Virus record (IMG/VR): IMGVR_UViG_3300045988_005753
Reading direction: 5' to 3' (one strand)
Source: a virus
Taxonomy: Duplodnaviria; Heunggongvirae; Uroviricota; Caudoviricetes
Length of the DNA stretch: 64,000 bases
The translations under genes and the position numbers were made by a program. The notes beneath the pieces are model-generated. The model saw only the letters and a program-made list of their open reading frames with translations. It searched no databases and had not been told where the DNA came from. Of this stretch, positions 6,715 to 64,000 are shown one piece after another; within the stretch, counting starts at the first letter, position 1, and each line of letters starts with the position of its first letter.

Positions 6715-12098
<5,384 letters not shown>

Positions 12099-47210: not shown

Positions 47211-47481
47211 AGAAAAGTGGGAGATTTTACCATTAGTCAGTGAAGGAGGCAATGGTTGTGAAATGTACATGATACGTGGTCATGTTCCAGAGCCAATCGC
47301 ACTTGAGATGGTAAACAACTTTACAGATGGTTCTTACAAAGACTTAGGCGAACCAACTGTCAAGCAACAATGGGTTAAACCTGTACCAGACAGCACAGGT
47401 AACTGTAGTGTACTTTATCACGTTGTAGACCCTGCAAAATGCAAATCTGCAATGGCAGTAACAAACGTAACTTTTGATTGA
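47203..47481 (+). CDS. hypothetical protein
   Basis: 92 aa ORF. Confidence 0.4.
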   Translation: MAKEKWEILPLVSEGGNGCEMYMIRGHVPEPIALEMVNNFTDGSYKDLGEPTVKQQWVKPVPDSTGNCSVLYHVVDPAKCKSAMAVTNVTFD

Positions 47482-48374
47482 GAGAGAAAACTATGAAAAC
47501 ATCTATACGTGTTACAGTTCATTCACCAACTAAAGGAACTCATGAAGAGGAGTTTAACATCATCCAATTTCCTTCTGGTGAGATTGGTGGACACTTTTCG
47601 CCAGAGTTTGTTGATTTTACTGCTTATGCAGCATCATCCATCAACAATGTGATTATGATTGTAAAAGGTTATGATAAAGACACATTGTTTGCTGTGGCAC
47701 TTGCTAAAGAAGCAATTGATGATTTAGTACCTCATAAGTTTGCTATGAAGACCATTATCTTTTACTATTTGCCAAATGCACGTTATGACCGTCACATGTT
47801 TAAAGGTGATGCAGCAGCTTTGAAAGTGTTTGCACAACAGGTTAATGCAATGGGTTTTGATGCAGTCTGTGCAGTTGACCCTCACAGCTATGTACCAGAT
47901 AACCTGTTTAACTGCTTCCAGAGTATTCCTCAAAAGGAAATTGCAGTCCACTATGCAAATGACCCACTGGTTGATTACTTAGTAGCCCCAGATGCAGGTG
48001 CTGCTAAGAAGATTGCAGAGACTGCTAAAGAGGTGGATAAACCATACATCACAATGTCTAAAGTGCGTAACCTTAAGACTGGTGAAATTACTGGTATGCG
48101 AATCCTTGATGATGTTGATTTGACAGATAAAACCGTCATGATTCTGGATGATATTTGTGATGGGGGCCGAACCTTCATAGAAGCAGCTAAACATCTTCGT
48201 GAAGCAGGTGCAAAACGTGTGGAACTCTATGTAACACATGGTATCTTCTCTAAAGATGTTGAAAACCTTCTTGACAACGGCATTGACCACATCTACACTA
48301 CAAACTCTTTAGGGGAAGCTAAAGACCGTGGTTTAACACATTATGGTCAAGTTACCGTAGCAAACCTTGATTAA
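47478..48374 (+). CDS. ribose-phosphate pyrophosphokinase family protein (Prs-like; possibly an ADP-ribose pyrophosphokinase)
   Basis: 298 aa; VMILDDICDGGRT matches the PRPP-binding motif; N-terminus diverges from housekeeping Prs. Confidence 0.65.
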   Translation: MREKTMKTSIRVTVHSPTKGTHEEEFNIIQFPSGEIGGHFSPEFVDFTAYAASSINNVIMIVKGYDKDTLFAVALAKEAIDDLVPHKFAMKTIIFYYLPNARYDRHMFKGDAAALKVFAQQVNAMGFDAVCAVDPHSYVPDNLFNCFQSIPQKEIAVHYANDPLVDYLVAPDAGAAKKIAETAKEVDKPYITMSKVRNLKTGEITGMRILDDVDLTDKTVMILDDICDGGRTFIEAAKHLREAGAKRVELYVTHGIFSKDVENLLDNGIDHIYTTNSLGEAKDRGLTHYGQVTVANLD

Positions 48375-48419: not shown

Positions 48420-50201
48420 ATGACTAAATCACTTTATGCAGTACCAGCAGGTTTAAACGCAGATGCTTACAAATCTGGTCACATCTACCAGTATCCTAGT
48501 GCAACAGAGTACTTGATGTTCAACCTGACACCACGTAGCGATAAATGGTTTAACAGCCCATTAGCAATTGATGGTGTAGTTGCTTTTGGTATTCAACGTT
48601 TTGTTAAAGATTACCTGATAGACCACTGGAACGCCACCTTCTTCGAACGTGACAAAAAAGAAGCAATTGACGAAATCTTAGAAGTCATGAATGGTGTTCT
48701 GGGTAAAGATGCTATTGGTCGAGAACATTGGGAAGCACTCCACGACTTAGGTTATCTACCAGTTGAAGTCTACGCTGTAGAAGAAGGAACAGTTGTCCCT
48801 ATGCGTGTACCAATGATTGTCTTCCAGAATACTGTTTCAGGTTTCCATTGGGTAGCGGGGTATCTGGAAGATGCTTTTTCTGCTGAGATTTGGAAGGCTT
48901 GTACCATTGCAACTATTGCATTGCACTACAAACGTATCTGTAAGAAGTGGTCTGACCTTACTTGTGACAACGACTTACATTTGCCTTATCAGTGCCATGA
49001 CTTTGCTATGCGTGGTATGTCCGGCTTTACTGATGACGCATTTAACGCTGTAGGCCACTTAACCAGCTTTAAAGGAACCGATAGCTTCCCTGCTGTATAC
49101 ACGGCTAAACGCATCTATGGACAGTCCTACCCAATTTCTGATATTGGCAGTTCTGTACCAGCCACTGAACACTCTGTAATGTGTGCAAACATTGCTTGGG
49201 AAGGTGGTAACGAGTTAATTGAAGAAGAAAGACGCTTTAAAGGTGAGTTACAAACCTTCCGTCGTTTCTTAACAGAAACTTACCCAACGGGTATTGCAAG
49301 TGTTGTTTCAGATACTTATAACTTCTGGAGAACTGTATCAGTCATATTACCAGAACTCCGTAAAGAGATTATGGAACGTAATGGCAAACTGGTAATTCGT
49401 CCTGATTCTGGAGACCCTGTACATATTGTCACAGGTTATAAAGCAATCCACTTAGAGTGTGCTAAAAAGGCTTATTACGAACACCTAAGCAAGCTGGAAG
49501 CCAGTGACACAATGTTGAATGCTGTTCTGAACATGAAGCTTGAGGATATTAACTATGGTATTGCTGGATGGCTACTGTCAGAAGGCTACGAAATGGTTGT
49601 TGACAGAGAAGACTTTGAAGTTGCTGACACAGTGATGTTGAAAAACGCTTATATGGTTGGTTCTGCAAACGTTGTAACACGTCCTGTAGCAGAGATTGAT
49701 GGGGCTATTAAGACCCTGTATAACATCTTTGGAGGGACTATCAACTCTAAAGGCTTTAAGGTACTTGATGAGCACATTGGACTCATCTATGGTGACTCTA
49801 TCACGTTGGAACGTGCAAACGAAATCCTGAAGCGTTTGTATGAAATGGGTTTTGCAAGCTCTAACGTAGTGTTTGGTGTAGGTTCTTACACTTACCAGTA
49901 CATGACTCGTGACACCTTTGCATTTGCTGTCAAAGCAACTCTTGCAAGCATTGGTGGTAAAGAGATTATGCTTGCAAAAGACCCTAAAACAGATAGTGGT
50001 GTTAAGAAGTCTGCTTTTGGTGGTGTAGCACCTATGTGGGATGGTGATAATCTGAAAGCTGTAGATGGTTATGGATTCCAGAGCTTTGAAGATGTACTTG
50101 AACATCCAGCTTGTGCTTTACGTTTAGTCTTTAGCGAATCTGAGCAGTTTGGCTACACAACTCTTGGAGATATTCGAAATAATATTGACAAGCAGCTTTA
50201 A
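48420..50201 (+). CDS. nicotinamide phosphoribosyltransferase family protein (Nampt/NadV-like)
   Basis: 593 aa; N-terminal ...ADAYKSGHIYQYP... and ...HDFAMRGMSG... resemble conserved Nampt motifs (DSYK...YP; DFGxRG). Confidence 0.7.
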   Translation: MTKSLYAVPAGLNADAYKSGHIYQYPSATEYLMFNLTPRSDKWFNSPLAIDGVVAFGIQRFVKDYLIDHWNATFFERDKKEAIDEILEVMNGVLGKDAIGREHWEALHDLGYLPVEVYAVEEGTVVPMRVPMIVFQNTVSGFHWVAGYLEDAFSAEIWKACTIATIALHYKRICKKWSDLTCDNDLHLPYQCHDFAMRGMSGFTDDAFNAVGHLTSFKGTDSFPAVYTAKRIYGQSYPISDIGSSVPATEHSVMCANIAWEGGNELIEEERRFKGELQTFRRFLTETYPTGIASVVSDTYNFWRTVSVILPELRKEIMERNGKLVIRPDSGDPVHIVTGYKAIHLECAKKAYYEHLSKLEASDTMLNAVLNMKLEDINYGIAGWLLSEGYEMVVDREDFEVADTVMLKNAYMVGSANVVTRPVAEIDGAIKTLYNIFGGTINSKGFKVLDEHIGLIYGDSITLERANEILKRLYEMGFASSNVVFGVGSYTYQYMTRDTFAFAVKATLASIGGKEIMLAKDPKTDSGVKKSAFGGVAPMWDGDNLKAVDGYGFQSFEDVLEHPACALRLVFSESEQFGYTTLGDIRNNIDKQL

Positions 50202-54433: not shown

Positions 54434-54982
54434 ATGAAGAAATTGATTCTAGGCTTGTGCTTAATGTTTACAGCACACTTATCTTATGCAGTTGACTGCC
54501 CAGAGCTAACAATTAGCCAAAAAGTAAACATGTTAAAAGCTTACCAGTATGGTGAGAATAATATGGGGAAAGGCTGGGGTATTACTCTAGCAGCTATAGC
54601 CTTACAAGAGTCAGAGTTAGGTCTGAAGGTAGAGAATAAAAAGACCCACGACTATGGTATTTTCCAGAATCACTTGAAGACTGTTGTAAAGCGTAACAAA
54701 ATTAGTCCTAATGTGGCTAAAAAGAAACTCTTAAAAGACTTTGACTATGCAGCAAAAGAGACACATAAAGAGCTTGAGTTTTGGACTAAGGTGCATGGTC
54801 ACCCAAAGTCAAAGAAGACTTTACAAAAAGTTTTAGCATCATATAATGCTGGGTATTCGTACAAAATCCCTAAAGCTAAGAAATACTCTCAAGATGTCTA
54901 TAACAATATGAAAGTTATCGCTCAATGTGAATTTGCAACAAACATTTCTAAGGTAAATCATGAAAAAATTAAGAAAGTCTGA
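54434..54982 (+). CDS. secreted lytic transglycosylase (SLT-domain) protein
   Basis: Signal peptide MKKLILGLCLMFTAHLSYA; IALQESEL (catalytic Glu-Ser), DYGIFQ and ASYNAGYS resemble the ES / GLMQ / AYNxG motifs of SLT domains. Confidence 0.5.
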   Translation: MKKLILGLCLMFTAHLSYAVDCPELTISQKVNMLKAYQYGENNMGKGWGITLAAIALQESELGLKVENKKTHDYGIFQNHLKTVVKRNKISPNVAKKKLLKDFDYAAKETHKELEFWTKVHGHPKSKKTLQKVLASYNAGYSYKIPKAKKYSQDVYNNMKVIAQCEFATNISKVNHEKIKKV

Positions 54983-55655
54983 TGAAGTCCTGTGCCATGC
55001 TTATGACTTGCATCCTCATGAGTTAGGTCTTGATTCCTGTGTATGGACTCCAGAACAGTGCAGGGATTTTGAAGACACTGCAAGAGAAGTTGTATGTTCA
55101 CTTGAAGAGTTCCACACATCAGAACCAATTGTGAACGTTGTGGACAAAGAGACTGGACAGGCTATAGGTGTAAGGCGTGACAGTTTAGTCATAGTCAATA
55201 AAGACCTTGTAGAAAAAGGTAACCTCATCTTAGCAGATATTGATGGTGTTCTTACAAATTTTAATCACGAAGATTGCTCAACGGAATTGACTGATGGGTC
55301 ATTCTCACAGTACACTAATCTTCTTGACTCTGTAAGAGCAAAACCAACGTATGTTTTTAGTATTATTGATGCAATTGCTAATCATGCTGCCATTGGACTC
55401 TTGACAGCGAGAGGTGAATCTCAGAGAATACCTACTGAGATGTTTTTAAGGCATAACATAGAGCATGATTACATGCTTTTTATGCGTGGTTTTGGAACTA
55501 ACTCTATAAGTGCAGAAAGTTTAAAAGTGAGGATGATTCAGTCTTGCATTCTTCCTTATTTTAATATAGTATGCTTTATAGAAGATACAGAGAAGAATGT
55601 TCAGAAGGTAAACAGAATCCTTCCACACATTAAAACCATGTTAGTTAAACATTGA
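54960..55655 (+). CDS. HAD-superfamily phosphatase-like protein
   Basis: LILADIDGVL matches HAD motif I (DxDGV/T); 231 aa with a Cys-containing N-terminal extension. Confidence 0.35.
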   Translation: MKKLRKSDEVLCHAYDLHPHELGLDSCVWTPEQCRDFEDTAREVVCSLEEFHTSEPIVNVVDKETGQAIGVRRDSLVIVNKDLVEKGNLILADIDGVLTNFNHEDCSTELTDGSFSQYTNLLDSVRAKPTYVFSIIDAIANHAAIGLLTARGESQRIPTEMFLRHNIEHDYMLFMRGFGTNSISAESLKVRMIQSCILPYFNIVCFIEDTEKNVQKVNRILPHIKTMLVKH

Positions 55656-56142: not shown

Positions 56143-56164
56143 AGGCTCCTTCGGGAGCCTTTTT
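56143..56164 (+). terminator. rho-independent terminator
   Basis: AGGCTCC, loop TTCG, GGAGCCT, then TTTTT. Confidence 0.6.
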
Positions 56165-56962: not shown

Positions 56963-57289
56963 ATGCAGATTAATGGAAGAGACTTTGTAGCCATTTACTA
57001 CGAGAAAGATAAAGAAGTTGGCGTAGCACAAGTATCTTATGGTAATGGTAAGTGGTTGTATGGGACAATCGCAGTAGTTGGAACAAGAAGTGATACAAAA
57101 ACTTTTAAAGATTGTGTTGACCTTCTTGAAGAATCCATCCACAATCATTGGTGTCTAATATGGATGACTGACAACGAAGTGATAGAACGCTTCAAAAAGA
57201 TTGGTATCAACATTGATAGTATTGAGCATGTTGATTTATATGAGCTAACTGAGAAGGTAAACTATGAAAGTAATACTAGCCAGAGATAA
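56963..57289 (+). CDS. hypothetical protein
   Basis: 108 aa ORF. Confidence 0.45.
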   Translation: MQINGRDFVAIYYEKDKEVGVAQVSYGNGKWLYGTIAVVGTRSDTKTFKDCVDLLEESIHNHWCLIWMTDNEVIERFKKIGINIDSIEHVDLYELTEKVNYESNTSQR

Positions 57290-57491
57290 AAAGACACGGA
57301 AACTTATCAGGTCAGCGGTGTTCATTGGACGAAATGAGGTCATCCCATTTACAGCAAATGATGTGATAGCTTACCGGAAGAACTTAGTATACACTGACTG
57401 TTTACGTGGCTTCATTTCTGAACCATTGGAAGACTTTAAAAGTCGTTGTGGTAAAGGTATCATCATTCAAGAGGCAATTATTCATGGCTGA
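57264..57491 (+). CDS. hypothetical protein
   Basis: 75 aa ORF. Confidence 0.4.
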   Translation: MKVILARDKKTRKLIRSAVFIGRNEVIPFTANDVIAYRKNLVYTDCLRGFISEPLEDFKSRCGKGIIIQEAIIHG

Positions 57492-57684
57492 CTTCTGCAA
57501 AGACTGTGCTATCGAAATGTTCGGACGTGATACAGGTGACTTAAAAGGTCTTATCACTGAAGATGACTTTAAAGCTGGCTATGCAATGCCAGTAATCTGT
57601 GAAGGTTGTGGGTGCATCTGGGTAGACCACGAAGGGCAGCGTGTAAAACCTTCAGAAGATAAAGAATCTTGGGAGAGATGTTAA
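57484..57684 (+). CDS. small zinc-ribbon-like protein
   Basis: Track ORF 57406..57684 trimmed to the ATG at 57484, which overlaps the upstream stop; CKDC...CEGCGC cysteine pairs. Confidence 0.4.
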   Translation: MADFCKDCAIEMFGRDTGDLKGLITEDDFKAGYAMPVICEGCGCIWVDHEGQRVKPSEDKESWERC

Positions 57685-58470
57685 ATGGGTATTGTAAAAA
57701 TCATCAATGGCGATATCTTTGCCGCATTTGATAAAGGTAAGTTTGACATTATTGGTCACGGTTGCAACTGTATGAATTTAATGGGTGCAGGTATCGCTGA
57801 CAAGATTTCTAAACTTTACCCAAAAGCATATGAGACAGATACAGAAATCTATCTATATGCAGGTGGCATAGGTCACAAACCCTGTGAAAATTTACTGGGT
57901 AATTTCTCTGTAGCACGTTTAAAACAAGGTCGTATAGCTAACCTTTACACTCAGCTTAAGACTGGTAAAGATGCCCGATACAGTGCTTTAGAGTCATCTT
58001 TGAAACAGCTTAACAGATACTGTGAAGTTAACCAGTTGAAGAAGGTTGGTCTACCTATGATTGGTGCAGGTATCGGTGGACTTGACCCTCAAGCTGTCAC
58101 AGTTATCATCAATCAGGTGATGAAGAGTGTAGATGTTTATCTGTATGTCTATGAAGGAGAGATGTACCACAAGTTACGCTCAGGTTGGAAGAACTACTGT
58201 GAACCAGAATACTTTGCAGGTGTAGCAGTGTTCACGGATAACGCAGTTACCCTCTTCAGACGAAGAAAAGCTAAGATACATCAAAGTAACCCTCCGGTTG
58301 AAAGGATGTCTCTAAGTAACGCTCTAGTTACCCACCTGTCGAAGAGCAATCACAGAATAGCTGTGACATTTGGTAGTGATGCAGATGCTTACATCTATGC
58401 AAGAACTGATGAGGATATCGAGGCAATTTTCTCATCACCGGAAGTTACCTTCTTAGACGCAAAGAACTAA
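57685..58470 (+). CDS. macro-domain protein (ADP-ribose binding/processing)
   Basis: DIIGHGCNCMNLMGAGIA and GLPMIGAGIGGLD resemble the two glycine-rich signature segments of macro domains (xNAANxxLxxGGGV and AFPxISTGxYG). Confidence 0.45.
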   Translation: MGIVKIINGDIFAAFDKGKFDIIGHGCNCMNLMGAGIADKISKLYPKAYETDTEIYLYAGGIGHKPCENLLGNFSVARLKQGRIANLYTQLKTGKDARYSALESSLKQLNRYCEVNQLKKVGLPMIGAGIGGLDPQAVTVIINQVMKSVDVYLYVYEGEMYHKLRSGWKNYCEPEYFAGVAVFTDNAVTLFRRRKAKIHQSNPPVERMSLSNALVTHLSKSNHRIAVTFGSDADAYIYARTDEDIEAIFSSPEVTFLDAKN

Positions 58471-58544
58471 GAAACTCTGTAGAATATTCACAATAGACTA
58501 AGCCTTTCTTATCTGGTAAATTTTTCAGGTAAGGGGGGCTTTTT

Positions 58545-58722
58545 CATTTCAGGATTGTGCAGGTAGAGTTCTGTATAGAAATCTGTAGAGAGTATTTTGA
58601 ACTCCAAAGAGAAAATTCATTTTCAAACTGTGCAGGTAATCTCCAAAGAGCTTTTTCATTTTCAAAACGTGCAGACCCCGCTCAGGTCGGGCAAGAAAAA
58701 TCATTTTAGAATTGTGCAGGTA
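58545..58722. repeat. cluster of four imperfect direct repeats, core CATTTTCAAACTGTGCAGGTA
   Basis: Copies start near 58545, 58618, 58657 and 58702; the middle two form a tandem ~39-bp unit that begins CTCCAAAGAG. Confidence 0.55.
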
Positions 58723-58746
58723 GGTTTTTATAGAGAGCCAGACCAA

Positions 58747-58899: not shown

Positions 58900-58928
58900 T
58901 TGACTCTTTGAGTATGGTTATCTAATAT
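58900..58928 (+). promoter_or_regulatory. sigma70-like promoter TTGACT-N17-TAATAT
   Basis: TTGACT 58900-58905, 17-nt spacer, TAATAT 58923-58928; same hexamers as the promoter at 18509; about 50 nt upstream of the first cassette ORF. Confidence 0.5.
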
Positions 58929-58978
58929 TTGCATCAGACGGGCAATCAAGCCCACTTCCTAAACTGGAGAATCTAAAA

Positions 58979-59185
58979 ATGCTGTACAGTCGCGAATTGA
59001 TGGTTACAACTAACATTAACACAAAGGCAAAACGTTTTTACATGCAAATCTGTGGCGTGTGGTCCAGAATATCAGAAGCTGACTATTGCAACTATGTAGA
59101 AACAGCTATAAACTCTAATTGCTACCTTACAAGAAACACTAAGAACTTTATAAGACAGTCAGCAATTTACTACTACGATAAATAA
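58979..59185 (+). CDS. hypothetical small early protein
   Basis: 68 aa; preceded by the conserved CCTAAACTGGAGAATCTAAAA ribosome-binding region. Confidence 0.45.
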   Translation: MLYSRELMVTTNINTKAKRFYMQICGVWSRISEADYCNYVETAINSNCYLTRNTKNFIRQSAIYYYDK

Positions 59186-59247
59186 AAAGTACTTTACAGG
59201 GGGCTTATAAGGCTGTACAGTAAGCCCCAGATAAAGAGCTTTACCAC
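59186..59247 (+). promoter_or_regulatory. family B intergenic cassette: TTTACA -35-like box, hairpin, conserved AGATAAAGAGCTTTACC
   Basis: GTACTTTACA after the stop; stem GGGGCTTA (59200-59207) / TAAGCCCC (59221-59228); TTTACA-N17-TACAGT geometry. Confidence 0.4.
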
Positions 59248-59275
59248 ATTAACCCTTAAACTAGGAGATTCTAAA

Positions 59276-59656
59276 ATGGCATATCGTGCACCTAAATTCA
59301 TCAACAAAGACAACTTTCGTAGCGTACTGGAGAAGTCACTTGATGAGAATTTTAAAGGTAACGTTATTGTTGTTCACTCGTTCAATTTCAAGTATGATAT
59401 TAACGGGAATAAAATCAACCATTACACGGCGACAATGCTAGATGGTACTCTTCCAAGTGAAAAAGCCATTTTGCATGCACTTGCGGGACGTGGTAAAAAC
59501 CTGATAAAATGCGATAAGAGACGTTATCAGGGTGGCGCATATGGTTATGATGATGCTGTTTATCATCTTGAAAATATGGGCTATCAAGTAGAAAAAGCTG
59601 GAGTGTCTCAAATAATTGGTAGTGATGGTTATGTAACAATCTTCAAAATTAAATAA
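59276..59656 (+). CDS. hypothetical small early protein
   Basis: 126 aa behind the conserved GGAG ribosome-binding region. Confidence 0.5.
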   Translation: MAYRAPKFINKDNFRSVLEKSLDENFKGNVIVVHSFNFKYDINGNKINHYTATMLDGTLPSEKAILHALAGRGKNLIKCDKRRYQGGAYGYDDAVYHLENMGYQVEKAGVSQIIGSDGYVTIFKIK

Positions 59657-59716
59657 AGTACTTTACAAGGGGCTTATAGTTCGATAGAGTAAGCCCCAGA
59701 TAAAGAGCTTTACCAC
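59657..59716 (+). promoter_or_regulatory. family B intergenic cassette
   Basis: Same flanks as 59186-59247; stem GGGGCTTA (59669-59676) / TAAGCCCC (59690-59697) with a different loop; TTTACA-N17-TAGAGT. Confidence 0.4.
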
Positions 59717-59741
59717 TAAATCCTAAACTGGAGATTCAAAA

Positions 59742-60038
59742 ATGAAACTATCAAATAAAGTCCGTGAAAATCTAAGCAAGTTACTTAATAAAATTGATTT
59801 CATTGAAACATCAAGGAATAGTCATGATGTTATGGAATGGTTACACGGAAAAATCAAAGGCCGTCGTGTAGTGATTTGCTTATGGAATAGTTGCAGGGAA
59901 TATAAAAAACCTGTATTGCAAGTCAATATCTATGATGATACTTTTAAAAGCCCTGTAAAGTCTAAAAGCGATTTATTAGAATCCTATGAGATAACTGTAA
60001 ATGGCAAAGTATCACGTAAAGAGGAAACACCATGCTAA
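59742..60038 (+). CDS. hypothetical small early protein
   Basis: 98 aa ORF. Confidence 0.5.
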   Translation: MKLSNKVRENLSKLLNKIDFIETSRNSHDVMEWLHGKIKGRRVVICLWNSCREYKKPVLQVNIYDDTFKSPVKSKSDLLESYEITVNGKVSRKEETPC

Positions 60039-60364
60039 TGACTGGTATCACTGCAATCATTGCCATTTTCGCGCTATATAAGGCATATAAAGCCTATAAT
60101 CTAGCAAATAAGGCAATCACACAGCAGGTTAGCAATAACCTTGTAGAGAGCTTTCTAGGGCGTTTAAGTGATGAGCAAATAAAGCGGCTAGAGATGAGCT
60201 TCAGATATAAAGCGAAAACCTATCAAATAAGTGACATCTTCAAAGATGATTTTCAGTTAGTTGATGATTATAATTCTCTGATAAATGCTTTAAATATCAG
60301 TGACTTAAAAGACTACTACGCTGTAATTGTTCAAGAATTGAGCAAACGAAAACAAAACTGTTGA
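60032..60364 (+). CDS. hypothetical small membrane protein
   Basis: 110 aa with an N-terminal hydrophobic helix (ITAIIAIFALY); overlaps the upstream ORF by 7 nt. Confidence 0.45.
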   Translation: MLMTGITAIIAIFALYKAYKAYNLANKAITQQVSNNLVESFLGRLSDEQIKRLEMSFRYKAKTYQISDIFKDDFQLVDDYNSLINALNISDLKDYYAVIVQELSKRKQNC

Positions 60365-60452
60365 CACTGGTTTTTAGATAGATTAAATTACACATCAACG
60401 GGGAGGGAATGACCTTCCCCACTAAATAAAGTCCTAAACTGGAGATTCTAAA
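60361..60452 (+). promoter_or_regulatory. family A cassette: promoter TTGACA-N17-TAAATT, 5'-UTR hairpin and conserved ribosome-binding region
   Basis: TTGACA 60361-60366, TAAATT 60384-60389; hairpin GGGGAGGG (60400-60407) / CCTTCCCC (60413-60420); then ACTAAATAAAGTCCTAAACTGGAGATTCTAAA before the ATG. Confidence 0.5.
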
Positions 60453-60725
60453 ATGTATACTACTAACAACGGTCGCACTTTAAATGTCACACTACGTCAC
60501 TATGTAGATGGTGTCATGCACTTTGAAGACTTACAAGCTGAACAACATATCTTAGATTGGCAAGTCGCAGGACTCCAAAAAACTGCTACGGGATACGGTA
60601 AAAAGATTCCAACCAGTTGGAAAGTACACTACGAAGGACGTTTGCGCAGAATTTATCAGGATGTGCAAAGCAATAGTGCATCGAGTTACATTATAGTAAA
60701 AGGTAAAAAACTGCATTTAGTGTAA
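60453..60725 (+). CDS. hypothetical small early protein
   Basis: 90 aa ORF. Confidence 0.5.
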   Translation: MYTTNNGRTLNVTLRHYVDGVMHFEDLQAEQHILDWQVAGLQKTATGYGKKIPTSWKVHYEGRLRRIYQDVQSNSASSYIIVKGKKLHLV

Positions 60726-60784
60726 AGTACTTTACAGGGGGTTATCAAGCTGATAAGATAACCCCAGATAAAGAGCTTTACCAC
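60726..60784 (+). promoter_or_regulatory. family B intergenic cassette with compensatory stem changes
   Basis: Stem GGGGTTATC (60738-60746) / GATAACCCC (60757-60765) preserves pairing with a different sequence from the other B copies; TTTACA-N17-TAAGAT. Confidence 0.4.
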
Positions 60785-60809
60785 TCAATCCTAAATTGGA
60801 GATTCTAAA

Positions 60810-61214
60810 ATGGCTATTAATAACCGTGAATTATCAATCTTAAAAGCACGTTTGACCGTCAACCGGATTAATGTTCTGACATCATCAGCGCCTGATGAGA
60901 CATTGCACAACATTATCGGAAAGATTCAAAGTGTTATCTTAGACGTTGAAAACGTAAAAAACTCATTGGCTGACGTTGCAGCAGGTATCACGCTAGACGG
61001 TGCGCAATATGAAATGATTGATATGTTAGGCAAATCAAAGGTTATGAATAAAGAGTTAGACCTAAAAATGTTTCGATTTGCCGTGAAAGTATGGCTATCT
61101 GTCGAGTATGATGCTAATTTTGCAATCGCTGATTTCTTCGCCACTTGGTTACAACGTAATTTGACAAATCACGATTTTCGTGGCATCTGCGATGCAATTT
61201 ATGCAGAACTCTAA
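60810..61214 (+). CDS. hypothetical small early protein
   Basis: 134 aa ORF. Confidence 0.5.
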   Translation: MAINNRELSILKARLTVNRINVLTSSAPDETLHNIIGKIQSVILDVENVKNSLADVAAGITLDGAQYEMIDMLGKSKVMNKELDLKMFRFAVKVWLSVEYDANFAIADFFATWLQRNLTNHDFRGICDAIYAEL

Positions 61215-61223
61215 AAAATTTTG

Positions 61224-61317
61224 TTGACACTGGTTTTTAGATAGATTAAATTACACATCAACGGGGAGGGAATGACCTTCCCCACTAAATAAAGTCCTTA
61301 AACTAGGAGATTCAAAA
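61224..61317 (+). promoter_or_regulatory. family A cassette, near-identical copy of 60361-60452
   Basis: TTGACA 61224-61229, TAAATT 61247-61252, hairpin 61263-61283, conserved ribosome-binding region. Confidence 0.5.
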
Positions 61318-61521
61318 ATGGCTATTATTAACGGTTTAACCATTGAAACTACACACATCAAAGATATCAAAGTTGGTGATATAGTCCTTTCCCACGGCGT
61401 AGAAAAAACTGTCACTGCAAAGGATATCAAAGAGGATTCTTTCATGGGTAGGACTCTCTTCGGTGATTCTTATTGCTTAGGTTATCTTGCAGTTTTAAAA
61501 GTTGTCAAAATTAACAAATAA
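61318..61521 (+). CDS. hypothetical small early protein
   Basis: 67 aa ORF. Confidence 0.45.
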   Translation: MAIINGLTIETTHIKDIKVGDIVLSHGVEKTVTAKDIKEDSFMGRTLFGDSYCLGYLAVLKVVKINK

Positions 61522-61580
61522 AGTACTTTACAAGGGGCTTATAAGTCTGTAAAGTAAGCCCCAGATAAAGAGCTTTACAC
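61522..61580 (+). promoter_or_regulatory. family B intergenic cassette
   Basis: Stem GGGGCTTA (61534-61541) / TAAGCCCC (61555-61562); TTTACA-N17-TAAAGT. Confidence 0.4.
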
Positions 61581-61605
61581 AATCCTTAAACTAGGAGATT
61601 CAAAA

Positions 61606-62148
61606 ATGAAATGCTATCACGGAACTACTCAAGAAAATTTCCTCAACCTGATTAATAACGGTGATAAACCATCAGGCGCATGGAATTGTTCGGATATGGA
61701 CGGCAATTTTTACGTGTATCCAGAAAATAAAATCTATGGCGACGATGAGGAAGAAATAGCATCAGAAGGTATCCAACAAGCTCTAGGAAATGCCACTATC
61801 ACCGCAGCTTTCCAGATGAAAACCCAAAATATTGTTATCTTAGAACTCGATATTCCAGAGGATGAGCTGAATGATGATTATTCTTGTGATAATATGTCGA
61901 GTGTAGCAAGTTTTACAGAGTACTTTGATGTAAATTGGATTAAAAAGGTCTATACAACAGAGTTTAACGCTATGTATTCACCTTTTTGTCTTCCTTCATT
62001 GGATAACCCAAATTTAAACTATCTTGATGAGTCTCTGGAGCTTCTTGCTAAAAGTGTTCAACAGTCGGACAGTATTCAGGTTTTTTGTGACATCATGGAT
62101 ACACTGACAGGGAACATTGCAGAAGAGGATTTAAAGAGCTTTTTCTAA
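61606..62148 (+). CDS. hypothetical acidic early protein
   Basis: 180 aa ORF. Confidence 0.5.
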   Translation: MKCYHGTTQENFLNLINNGDKPSGAWNCSDMDGNFYVYPENKIYGDDEEEIASEGIQQALGNATITAAFQMKTQNIVILELDIPEDELNDDYSCDNMSSVASFTEYFDVNWIKKVYTTEFNAMYSPFCLPSLDNPNLNYLDESLELLAKSVQQSDSIQVFCDIMDTLTGNIAEEDLKSFF

Positions 62149-62214
62149 AAACCTATGCAATCACCTTATAAACACTAATCAGCCCCTTGTAGGGGCTTTT
62201 AGGGGGCTTAAATC

Positions 62215-62448
62215 ATGCTTACAACCATTTACCTCATCCTTTCCATCTGTAATGGCCATTCATGTGACTTTAAGGGGCTTGAAGAGTTTACAGGAAGTAA
62301 AGAAAATGCTATTCAAGTTTGCCAGATAGCAAGACAAGACTATCCCGCCAGTGATGATATACAATGCTATTTTAAGACAGAAGATGACGAAGGAATCTAT
62401 TTCGACAGTGTTGACGGCCAATATGAAATTATCATTGAAAAAGACTAG
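62215..62448 (+). CDS. hypothetical small early protein
   Basis: 77 aa ORF with a hydrophobic N-terminus. Confidence 0.45.
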   Translation: MLTTIYLILSICNGHSCDFKGLEEFTGSKENAIQVCQIARQDYPASDDIQCYFKTEDDEGIYFDSVDGQYEIIIEKD

Positions 62449-62540
62449 ACAAGCCTGATAAAAGTCTGTAAATTGTCAATCAACGGGGAGGGAATGACCT
62501 TCCCCACTAAATAAAGTCCTTAAACTAGGAGATTCTAAAA
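62446..62540 (+). promoter_or_regulatory. family A cassette (promoter TAGACA-N17-TAAATT, 5'-UTR hairpin, conserved ribosome-binding region)
   Basis: TAGACA 62446-62451, TAAATT 62469-62474; hairpin GGGGAGGG (62485-62492) / CCTTCCCC (62498-62505). Confidence 0.45.
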
Positions 62541-62882
62541 ATGGCTTATGTAACCGTAATTACCGATAAAGAGGATTCATCTTGGTCAACTCAAGTAAGT
62601 GATAAGATGTCGCCTATGCAGTGCCTAAAATACTTTGAGCAGTGGAACAAAGGCGAGGATGTAAGCCCCTTTCAGGTAATGCAAATCATCCATACAGATA
62701 ACGAAGGGAATAAAACGACACTGAATAGTGAGTACTATGCAAGCCGTTTTGAAACGAGAAGTAAAACAATGAAGCTTTTACGTGAATCCGGCTATTCTCA
62801 CATTGCCGCGCTAATCTGGGATGACCTGCTAAAAAGTCAGCGTATCAGCTATGTAAAACCTGAAAAAATATTCATCAGTTAA
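62541..62882 (+). CDS. hypothetical small early protein
   Basis: 113 aa ORF. Confidence 0.5.
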   Translation: MAYVTVITDKEDSSWSTQVSDKMSPMQCLKYFEQWNKGEDVSPFQVMQIIHTDNEGNKTTLNSEYYASRFETRSKTMKLLRESGYSHIAALIWDDLLKSQRISYVKPEKIFIS

Positions 62883-63010
62883 TCAATAACTTATAAAAAA
62901 CTTTTAAAAAAGTGTTGACAATACCCCTTGACATTGGTAACTTTGTTCGAGGGGGTTTATCTAAAAGGATTCACTTAAAAGATTCTTTATAGATAAGCTT
63001 AAAAAATTGC

Positions 63011-63039
63011 TTGCAATCAGCTATCAAAAACTTTATAGT
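63011..63039 (+). promoter_or_regulatory. sigma70-like promoter TTGCAA-N17-TATAGT
   Basis: TTGCAA 63011-63016, 17-nt spacer, TATAGT 63034-63039; upstream of the conserved ribosome-binding region and the ATG at 63082. Confidence 0.45.
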
Positions 63040-63081
63040 TTATCTCAAGCAATAATGCTTTCCTAAACTGGAGATTCAAAA

Positions 63082-63612
63082 ATGAACAAGTTCAAAGCTA
63101 TCAACTACATTCGCTCAAATAGTGTCATGTCTAAGCCTGTTAAAGATACCTTTGAGTTCCGCTGTAATGGTGTACACTTTGCAACCATCACTAAATCAGA
63201 AAACGGGGCTTATTATGTACATCGTCGTAATGTTCCAACCGTTGTAGTCTCTCACTTTATGCAAGCCGTAGCGGAGTTATTACCGTTATTCTTAGAGATT
63301 TACTTAGATGAGTGTAAAAACGTTCGCAACCATGTTAAAAACCTTTTAAATGGTTATAAGATGGCTTATGAACGTTCTATCAAGAATCTTAACAAGTTCT
63401 ATAAAGCCCCTGAAAATACTGTATCAATAGCTTATGATGTAAGCGGTGAAATGGTCAACCTCTCTAATGTAGAACAAATTAGCCTTTATGATTTACGTCC
63501 TAGTGGCTACTCTAAGACTCTCGGTGAAGGTTTATCCTTCAATATCAAGAACTTAGAAAAAACTTTAAAAGATATTGAAAAAGATATTGACGAGACAATC
63601 AAAAGTCTGTAA
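63082..63612 (+). CDS. hypothetical early protein
   Basis: 176 aa ORF. Confidence 0.5.
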   Translation: MNKFKAINYIRSNSVMSKPVKDTFEFRCNGVHFATITKSENGAYYVHRRNVPTVVVSHFMQAVAELLPLFLEIYLDECKNVRNHVKNLLNGYKMAYERSIKNLNKFYKAPENTVSIAYDVSGEMVNLSNVEQISLYDLRPSGYSKTLGEGLSFNIKNLEKTLKDIEKDIDETIKSL

Positions 63613-63674
63613 ATTGTCAATCAACGGGGGATAACCTCCCCCACTAAACAAAATCCTAAACTGGAGTTATCAAG
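63587..63674 (+). promoter_or_regulatory. family A cassette variant with a covarying hairpin
   Basis: TTGACG 63587-63592, TAAATT 63610-63615; hairpin GGGGGA (63626-63631) / TCCCCC (63637-63642) keeps the stem with a changed loop. Confidence 0.45.
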
Positions 63675-63938
63675 ATGGAAAACGTAGAATTAACCACAAT
63701 TTTACAAATTGCAACCGACAAAGAAGATGTAGCATTATTCCACCGTATCGAAAGCGATTTGTTCAATGGTGAAATCATTAAAGAATCTTACGAAGTTGTC
63801 GGATTCAAAGATGGTAAAGCATTTGGCTTTTTTGACCTCGACAAAAGCAAAGCGGTTACAATGTACGATGTTCTATCTTGTGAAATTCTGACAAAATACA
63901 ACGAAAAAAGGCTTGCAACCTACGCCAATATGCAGTAA
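63675..63938 (+). CDS. hypothetical small early protein
   Basis: 87 aa ORF. Confidence 0.5.
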   Translation: MENVELTTILQIATDKEDVALFHRIESDLFNGEIIKESYEVVGFKDGKAFGFFDLDKSKAVTMYDVLSCEILTKYNEKRLATYANMQ

Positions 63939-64000
63939 ATTACTAATCAACGGGGAGGGAATGACCTTCCCCACTAAATAAAGTCCTAAACTGGAGATTC
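63913..64000 (+). promoter_or_regulatory. family A cassette running off the end of the window
   Basis: TTGCAA 63913-63918, TAAATT 63936-63941; hairpin GGGGAGGG (63952-63959) / CCTTCCCC (63965-63972); conserved ribosome-binding region reaches the window edge. Confidence 0.45.

Follow-up and report, generated by a model that had tools for sequence, protein, structure and literature searches.

A predicted Gln-type macrodomain protein with a fast-evolving C-terminal domain at a dimorphic, cassette-exchanged locus of Felixounaviruses

Introduction

According to a review, about 41% of myoviruses carry a macrodomain. Two physiological roles for these phage proteins were established only in 2025-2026: action against the toxin DarT2, and recycling of ADP-ribose-1''-phosphate (ADPR-1''-P) for the NARP1 pathway. 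Here we describe a 261-aa macrodomain protein encoded in IMG/VR virus record IMGVR_UViG_3300045988_005753, a stretch of 64,000 nucleotides that we call the window. The window comes from a Felixounavirus (Felix O1-like myophage) and has about 93% nucleotide identity to Bas63/JohannRWettstein and to about 200 other records.

Two CHARACTERISED phage relatives are relevant to this protein, Tk.4 (AdfM) of T4 and T2, and Adpp. The tk.4 gene is the single T4 gene required on DarTG2 hosts; its knockout sensitizes T4 to DarTG2, and the product was named AdfM (bioRxiv 10.1101/2025.11.20.689424). The AdfM of PhiKZ (gp104) is of the Lys type and DarG-like, and its DNA de-ADP-ribosylation has been demonstrated. 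Adpp is a Poa1p-like macro protein encoded between Adps and Namat, the two NARP1 enzymes, in about 15% of NARP1 phages, and is defined as a macro protein within two genes of NARP1. The Adpp of Vibrio phage Gary dephosphorylates ADPR-1''-P, the product of the RES-domain defense aRES, to ADP-ribose (ADPR), from which NARP1 rebuilds NAD+ (bioRxiv 10.64898/2026.01.28.702374). Among bacterial proteins, SCO6735 cleaves thymidine-linked ADP-ribose on single-stranded DNA (ssDNA) and neutralizes DarT; it acts on protein substrates too, and its Gln85 is essential, the Q85A mutant being inactive (PMC9411070).

The family is known, as are its fold and likely roles; the gene is annotated routinely and does not represent a new system. 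What is new is a C-terminal domain restricted to one lineage, a dimorphic cassette, and a position between two characterized functions in a phage that carries NARP1. Felixounaviruses are widely used in therapy and biocontrol and carry NARP1 together with an unlinked macro gene; knowing which defense this gene defeats would aid host-range prediction. The fusion to a private, fast-evolving domain at a dimorphic cassette locus offers a tractable natural experiment, which bears on how enzymatic counter-defense factors acquire specificity modules. It also bears on the question of whether a single macro scaffold can serve in DNA repair as well as in NAD+ salvage.

Results and Discussion

A two-domain protein with a macro fold

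The gene and its two domains map as follows.

57685 to 58470, + strand: macro gene, a complete open reading frame (ORF) of 261 aa plus stop with an ATG start; orthologue of bas63_0095 (g95) of Bas63, "putative phosphatase"
57685 to 58152, + strand: macro domain, residues 1 to 156, supported by Pfam, the family alignment, Foldseek and profile alignment
58153 to 58467, + strand: C-terminal domain, residues 157 to 261 (105 aa), made of a linker helix, six beta-strands and a terminal helix

A preliminary description, made from the DNA letters and their translations, had reported a 261-aa ORF with two glycine-rich macro signature segments. We located the ORF and both segments exactly there, DIIGHGCNCMNLMGAGIA at residues 21 to 38 and GLPMIGAGIGGLD at residues 122 to 134. 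The Pfam Macro model (PF01661) matches residues 25 to 141 with 32.7 bits (E = 7.8e-8), which passes its gathering cutoff of 22. PHROG 335 ("phosphatase") matches residues 1 to 260 (E = 1.8e-112), and thus the whole two-domain protein, beyond its macro part, is a recognized phage family. In public records the orthologues are labeled "putative phosphatase", "O-acetyl-ADP-ribose deacetylase" or "macro domain protein".

We then examined a predicted structure. The AlphaFold2 model, built from a 30-sequence alignment, has a predicted local distance difference test (pLDDT) score of 89.6 and a predicted template-modeling (pTM) score of 0.88, and shows a three-layer alpha/beta/alpha macro fold. A Foldseek comparison of the model with the PDB gave 239 matches at E<=1e-3; the best 50 of the 239 are macrodomains, apart from a few designed serine hydrolases (OSH55 series). 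The macrodomains of TARG1, Poa1p and DarG are on top, with E values of 3e-10 to 3e-9, target-normalized template-modeling (TM) scores of 0.76 to 0.87, and alignments confined to the N-terminal 155 to 178 residues or so. TARG1/OARD1 (PDB 4J5S; E = 3e-10, TM 0.84) and yeast Poa1p (PDB 6LFR; E = 1.5e-9, TM 0.76) are the best structural matches, yet share only 22-25% sequence identity with the window protein. Judged by the model, the macro fold and the ADP-ribose loops are real. The protein had been called a macro-domain protein at the outset, and both the Pfam score and the comparison with characterized macrodomains, of which TARG1, Poa1p and DarG are nearest, bear this out.

A Gln in place of the catalytic Lys

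To describe the active site we used a family alignment of 30 homologues with 27-95% identity to the window protein. Invariant in it are H25, G26, N28, C29, M33, G36, A38, N86, L87, T89, Q90, P124, G127 and G129, Q90 being present in 30/30 members. The pocket elements of the macro superfamily were found, namely the adenine-contacting Asp after strand 1 and two glycine-rich phosphate-binding loops: the segments G9-D10, M33-G-A-G-I-A38 and P124-x-I-G-A-G-I-G-G132 are conserved in the family and align to their TARG1 counterparts. The ADP-ribose pocket is therefore predicted to be intact.

When the family profile was compared with PDB sequences, the matches were TARG1 (9e-17), Mycobacterium tuberculosis (Mtb) DarG (2e-16), Poa1p (3e-14), SCO6735 (1e-13) and BT1257 (3e-12). 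In the profile alignment Gln90 falls on the catalytic Lys, K84 of TARG1, which is equivalent to K80 of DarG, and Gly131 falls on D125 of TARG1. The Lys84/Asp125 dyad of TARG1-type hydrolases is thus not kept, nor is Lys80 of DarG, and because of these two replacements the window protein is not a Lys enzyme of the TARG1 or DarG type. By its sequence it belongs to the Gln type exemplified by SCO6735 (PDB 5E3B), which like BT1257 has Gln at the position of the TARG1/DarG Lys. SCO6735 and BT1257 differ from it in being single-domain bacterial proteins, housekeeping or SOS-linked, whose mobile loop is longer and rich in Lys. The H25/N28/Q90 constellation is common to Tk.4, the Adpp-type macros and the window clade.

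DarG is a close structural neighbor (PDB 5M31/5M3E/5M3I) and has a similar two-part logic, pairing a hydrolase with a second domain. In PADLOC and NCBIfam, the window protein hits only the DarG macro region, where it outscores Tk.4. It fails the NCBIfam DarG equivalog NF048014 (48.1 bits against a cutoff of 250), of which it covers only model positions 4 to 154 of 338; in the PADLOC DarG model it covers positions 18 to 146 of 329. Unlike the window protein, DarG and PhiKZ gp104 keep the catalytic Lys. DarG also has a darT partner, whereas no darT was found among the named genes that flank the window gene (spanins and lysis genes upstream).

These comparisons bear on two other functions. TARG1 is the top structural neighbor, SCO6735 also acts on protein substrates, and some depositors use the label O-acetyl-ADP-ribose deacetylase, all of which could point to a protein or RNA de-ADP-ribosylase that reverses the marks of host ADP-ribosyltransferase (ART) toxins (e.g., CmdT-like ones) or of a phage ART. 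We consider this improbable and less supported: the TARG1 dyad is gone; no ART is annotated in positions 1-50000 and 53093-74090 of the Bas63 record, the parts inspected; and the Tpt1-like assignment suggested for Bas63 gp107, discussed below, finds no sequence support. The second function comes from the preliminary description, which had proposed either reversal of ADP-ribosylation or degradation of ADPR-derived immune signals. The broader part is supported, since an ADP-ribose hydrolase in phage-host conflict fits the fold, the motifs, Tk.4/AdfM and Adpp, but we found nothing in favor of Thoeris-type signals. Degradation or sequestration of such signals (the cyclic ADPR isomers of Thoeris, or His-ADPR) draws only on general arguments, namely the binding of ADPR derivatives by macrodomains and a prediction that phage macros act on soluble signals. 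Against it, no homologue with such an activity turned up, the known phage solutions have other folds (Tad proteins and RyR-domain proteins), and the conserved hydrolytic residues argue against a sponge. This less supported role is very unlikely.

The C-terminal domain is confined to one clade and evolves fast

The preliminary description had mentioned a C-terminal extension of about 110 aa. The extension exists (105 aa), but it is more informative than that reading suggested, being lineage-restricted, fast-evolving and part of a dimorphic, cassette-exchanged locus. Searched against Pfam, the domain matched nothing even at E<=10; against PHROGs it found its own family only, and against BFVD only the orthologue of phage SUSP2. 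A word-indexed search with its profile returned a single fragment. We then ran an exhaustive hidden Markov model (HMM) search of 1.84 billion representative proteins, which gave 10 hits, of which 6 are two-domain macros or fragments thereof; hits P0034, P0035, P0037 and P0038 were rejected as repeat-inflated artifacts. By these searches the domain appears only fused to this macro clade, with no detectable relatives elsewhere among the proteins searched.

In 235 pairs of closely related alleles, the ratio of nonsynonymous to synonymous substitution rates (dN/dS) is 0.20 for the C-terminal domain versus 0.046 for the macro domain. The C-terminal domain is thus genuine and under purifying selection, and its rate of evolution is about four times that of the macro domain. 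A conserved DNA mimic or a conserved basic DNA binder is unsupported, because the net charge varies; the isoelectric point (pI) of the domain runs from 4.6 to 9.8 across the family.

The macro proteins of Erwinia-infecting Ounavirinae (L037, about 8486-9268; L038, 10001-10783) are also about 260 aa long. They have Gln in place of His25 (AQGCNC), and their C-terminal extension is unrecognized by the C-domain HMM, a difference that suggests modular replacement of the appended domain.

The locus is dimorphic and exchanged as a cassette

Comparison of Felixounavirus genomes showed that the macro gene exists in two forms, which we call allele A (the window's type) and allele B (the P0009 type, carried for instance by phages finno and BPS17L1).

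57685 to 58665, no strand: cassette exchanged between Felixounavirus genomes, seen as a drop in identity to allele-B genomes

Against allele-B genomes, the window is 96-98% identical at nucleotide level up to the macro ATG; exactly there, identity drops to 40-70%, and it comes back up at about 58665. In three Felixounavirus backbones (L036, L006 and L035) the macro protein is 41-42% identical to that of the window, while the gene immediately upstream is 98-100% identical in all three and those flanking proteins that could be compared are 91-100% identical in L036 and L006. The L035 backbone differs also at g93, g98, g99 and g107. Allele B keeps every catalytic motif. Of about 257 Ounavirinae records, 13 have it, and these come from phages of E. 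coli as well as of Salmonella; no macro alleles with between 60% and 95% identity were seen in these records. The locus is dimorphic without intermediates, and the alleles are replaced as whole cassettes.

Two observations touch this locus. Like the macro gene, the small gene g93 (57264-57491), which lies two ORFs before it, varies: L036 and L006 lack g93 or have no recognizable copy, and the L035 version is 71% identical, while the neighbors of g93 are 93-100% identical. Phage VpaE1 (KM657822.1) has allele A, and record VpaE1_ev035 (LR699048.1) has allele B, with 95.7% identity to P0009. If "ev" marks a derivative that arose by evolution or recombination, the exchange of the cassette may have taken place in laboratory co-culture.

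The gene lies apart from NARP1 and resembles tk.4 in motifs and loop length

The NARP1 genes of the window are the following.

47478 to 48374, + strand: Adps (PRPS-like ADPR pyrophosphokinase), the first NARP1 enzyme, 9.3 kb upstream of the macro gene; g79 of Bas63
48420 to 50201, + strand: Namat (Nampt-like nicotinamide ADPR-transferase), the second NARP1 enzyme, 7.5 kb upstream; g80 of Bas63

Their Bas63 counterparts, g79 and g80, are validated counter-defense genes (PhageMaP preprint). The macro gene had been placed next to an NAD-related gene pair. That pair is NARP1, and it is not adjacent: from the end of Namat (50201) to the macro start (57685) there are 7,484 bp, with 12 ORFs and at least one terminator-like site (56143-56160). 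Adpp, by definition, lies within two genes of Adps and Namat and is encoded between them; the window gene is 7.5 kb off and in another transcription unit. Adps is nevertheless a possible metabolic partner of the macro protein.

Tk.4 is the best-scoring characterized phage homologue of the window macro (35% identity, 82 bits, E = 3e-24). The two share identical motifs (HGCNC, MG[AS]G[IV]A, NLYTQ and P.IGAGIG), lack an insertion after the Gln, and are both found in virulent enterobacterial myophages outside any NAD operon. They differ in that Tk.4 is a single domain of 155 aa, without the extra 105-aa C-domain, and the window protein groups in an Ounavirinae clade of its own. The macro domain of the window is basic, with a pI of about 8.8, unlike the acidic Tk.4 clade; charge does not separate AdfM from Adpp, as the Tk.4 clade and PhiKZ AdfM are themselves acidic.

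To compare the two types more widely, we scored 159 viral loci with homologous macros for architecture, motifs and distance to Adps/Namat homologues. Of the 16 macros within 1.5 kb of such NARP1-like genes, 15 have a spacing of 36-41 residues between the Gln and the second glycine loop. These macros almost always carry an insertion of 3-8 residues, often basic, right after the Gln, frequently have Y-G/S-Q at the Gln, and have no C-terminal domain. The spacing is 33 in the window protein and 34 in Tk.4, both with Y-T-Q, as in most macros unlinked to NARP1. This loop signature is an empirical one from our own comparison rather than a published criterion, and sequences of the insertion type served as seeds for the second locus sample. 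The loop comparison is biased by this seeding, so that the association is suggestive and not rigorous. Loop length, motif and gene position are the sole discriminating features, and they favor the AdfM type.

An AdfM-like counter-defense role is tentatively favored

Our preferred reading, held at somewhat less than even confidence, is that the protein is an AdfM-like counter-defense enzyme that removes DarT2-type ADP-ribose from phage ssDNA. The C-domain would be a module for binding or targeting, under the pressure of an arms race. The N-terminal Gln-type macrodomain, of the DarG/TARG1/Poa1p group, would bind ADP-ribose and hydrolyze the bond at C1'' of the distal ribose. Hydrolysis would be mediated by a water positioned by Gln90, Asn28 and His25, and not by the Lys Schiff-base chemistry of TARG1. 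We infer that the most likely substrate is ADP-ribose put on thymidine in single-stranded phage DNA by DarT2-type toxins of the host. The protein would then be an enzyme like an orphan antitoxin, akin to T4 Tk.4/AdfM, and would allow phage replication to continue. The C-domain may bind or target the host toxin or the substrate, in which case its diversification and the cassette exchange would reflect an arms race. A fast-evolving extra domain, a dimorphic locus and cassette replacement are hard to account for with a small-molecule phosphatase and are expected of a factor that faces variable host proteins.

Several points weigh against this reading. The two-domain proteins form their own clade, about equidistant from the Tk.4 clade and the NARP1-embedded macros in a star-like neighbor-joining tree, and group HMMs scored the window macro at 113 bits (Tk.4 clade) versus 115 bits (NARP1-embedded macros), a tie. 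All carriers of the two-domain protein that we examined also have NARP1 about 7.5-10 kb upstream, which fits an Adpp role. In neither sequence nor fold does the C-domain resemble the domain with which DarG binds DarT, and its net charge varies across the family. We found no biochemical or genetic work on a Felixounavirus macro protein in the searchable literature. The gene g95 was not flagged in the PhageMaP work on Bas63, although DarTG was not among the systems tested there, and the action of Tk.4 on DNA was itself inferred from genetics and not from assays (bioRxiv 10.1101/2025.11.20.689424).

An alternative is an Adpp encoded apart from the NARP1 genes, an ADPR-1''-P phosphatase that converts the NAD+-phosphorolysis product of aRES to ADPR, which phage Adps and Namat then rebuild to NAD+. 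We think this rather unlikely, though it is the chief rival of the AdfM-like role. The window protein is Poa1p-like by both profile (E = 3e-14) and Foldseek (6lfr and 6lfq), as Adpp is; the Adpp of phage Gary has just this activity and counters aRES; and NARP1, validated as counter-defense in Bas63, is present in the window genome as in all divergent two-domain carriers examined. We also recovered the operon order Adps-macro-Namat in Vibrio phages K460 and Ceto, whose macros are 28-29% identical to that of the window. On the other side stand the distance of 7.5 kb and 12 ORFs beyond a terminator-like site, the missing basic insertion after the Gln and the missing Y[G/S]Q, and the fast-evolving extra domain and allelic cassette exchange, for which a small-molecule phosphatase gives no reason. 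Co-occurrence with NARP1 can moreover be explained by shared Ounavirinae synteny: divergent relatives (32-36% identity) share the long-range order NARP1, rIIA/B, lysin, HAD/PNKP-like gene, macro.

Many macrodomains act on several 1''-linked substrates. A single site might therefore both strip DarT ADP-ribose from DNA and dephosphorylate ADPR-1''-P, and perhaps act on O-acyl-ADPR, with the freed ADPR recycled by NARP1 into NAD+. The shared H/N/Q constellation, the equidistance from both groups and the presence of NARP1 in the same genome are consistent with such a dual role. Both activities have been shown for no member of this phage family, however, and the loop differences between subgroups suggest specialization, and we regard the dual role as plausible but unlikely. 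A version of the AdfM-like role to which we give a similarly low probability is that of a two-pronged orphan antitoxin with an origin independent of DarG, in which the macrodomain erases DNA ADP-ribosylation and the C-domain, PH-like at best, directly binds and blocks the host ADP-ribosyltransferase (DarT2 or a RES/ART toxin). If this were true, the swapping alleles, 41% identical, would be matched to different host toxin variants, and released ADPR may also feed the phage NARP1 pathway.

Gene neighborhood

The macro gene is the last cistron of a block that runs from rIIA/rIIB to the lysis genes, at the edge of an array of small genes. This follows from its ATG, which abuts the TAA of the small gene upstream, from a hairpin 3' of its stop codon, and from array cassettes that start at about 58900. 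The preliminary description had likewise put the gene at the boundary of the small early-gene array.

58500 to 58541, + strand: terminator-like hairpin of 17 pairs followed by a T-run, right after the macro stop codon; ends the upstream transcription unit

With the upstream stop directly before the macro ATG, translational coupling is possible. The mechanical ORF just upstream (57406-57684) starts with GTG, encodes 92 aa and overlaps g93; Bas63 annotates a shorter gene of 66 aa there (57484-57684). The protein encoded just upstream has a CxxC...CxxC pattern (CKDC...CEGC), which suggests a small zinc-ribbon protein. Most other neighbors of the macro gene are small ORFs of unknown function without a Pfam hit.

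Downstream of the terminator, positions 58544-58736 hold 4-5 copies of TCATTT(T/C)-N5-TGTGCAG(GTAG), about 40-45 bp apart (families D6 and D10). The left part of this stretch is within the block that differs between allele-A and allele-B genomes. It has no + strand ORF; two tiny - strand ORFs are annotated in Bas63. In the array itself (58900-64000), a cassette of promoter, hairpin and ribosome-binding site (RBS) is repeated ahead of each gene, starting at about 58900-58982. The intergenic unit combines a TTGAC-type box resembling a promoter with a GGGGAGGGAATGACCTTCCCC or GGGGCTTA...TAAGCCCC hairpin and an RBS/start of conserved sequence CCTAAACTGGAGATTCTAAAATG; there are 4-7 copies (families D1-D5).

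An ORF of 231 aa at 54960-55655, annotated as "polynucleotide kinase" in Bas63, has no Pfam hit at E<=0.01. Its divergent orthologues have weak or faint hits only to HAD_PNKP, a phosphatase-domain model, and the product is probably a HAD phosphatase rather than a kinase. This gene bears on one further role for the macro protein, the housekeeping clearance of ADPR-1''-P as a by-product of RNA repair, as Poa1p does downstream of a Tpt1-like enzyme. The similarity to Poa1p, the HAD/PNKP-like gene and the slight structural likeness of Bas63 gp107 to Tpt1 would fit such a role. No RNA ligase is annotated in the inspected parts of the Bas63 record (1-50000 and 53093-74090), though, neither Pfam nor the PDB sequences gave a match to the gp107 orthologue, and allelic cassette exchange is left unexplained. 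We see little chance that this less supported role is correct.

The gp107 orthologue in the window (61606-62148) encodes 180 aa and starts MKCYHGT. The likeness of gp107 is to the NAD-binding domain of RNA 2'-phosphotransferase (Tpt1/KptA) (PhageMaP preprint); our comparisons of the orthologue with Pfam and PDB sequences gave no support for it. In the otherwise near-identical backbone L035 the gp107 orthologue is only 55% identical, and gp107 may be another variable gene related to NAD or ADPR.

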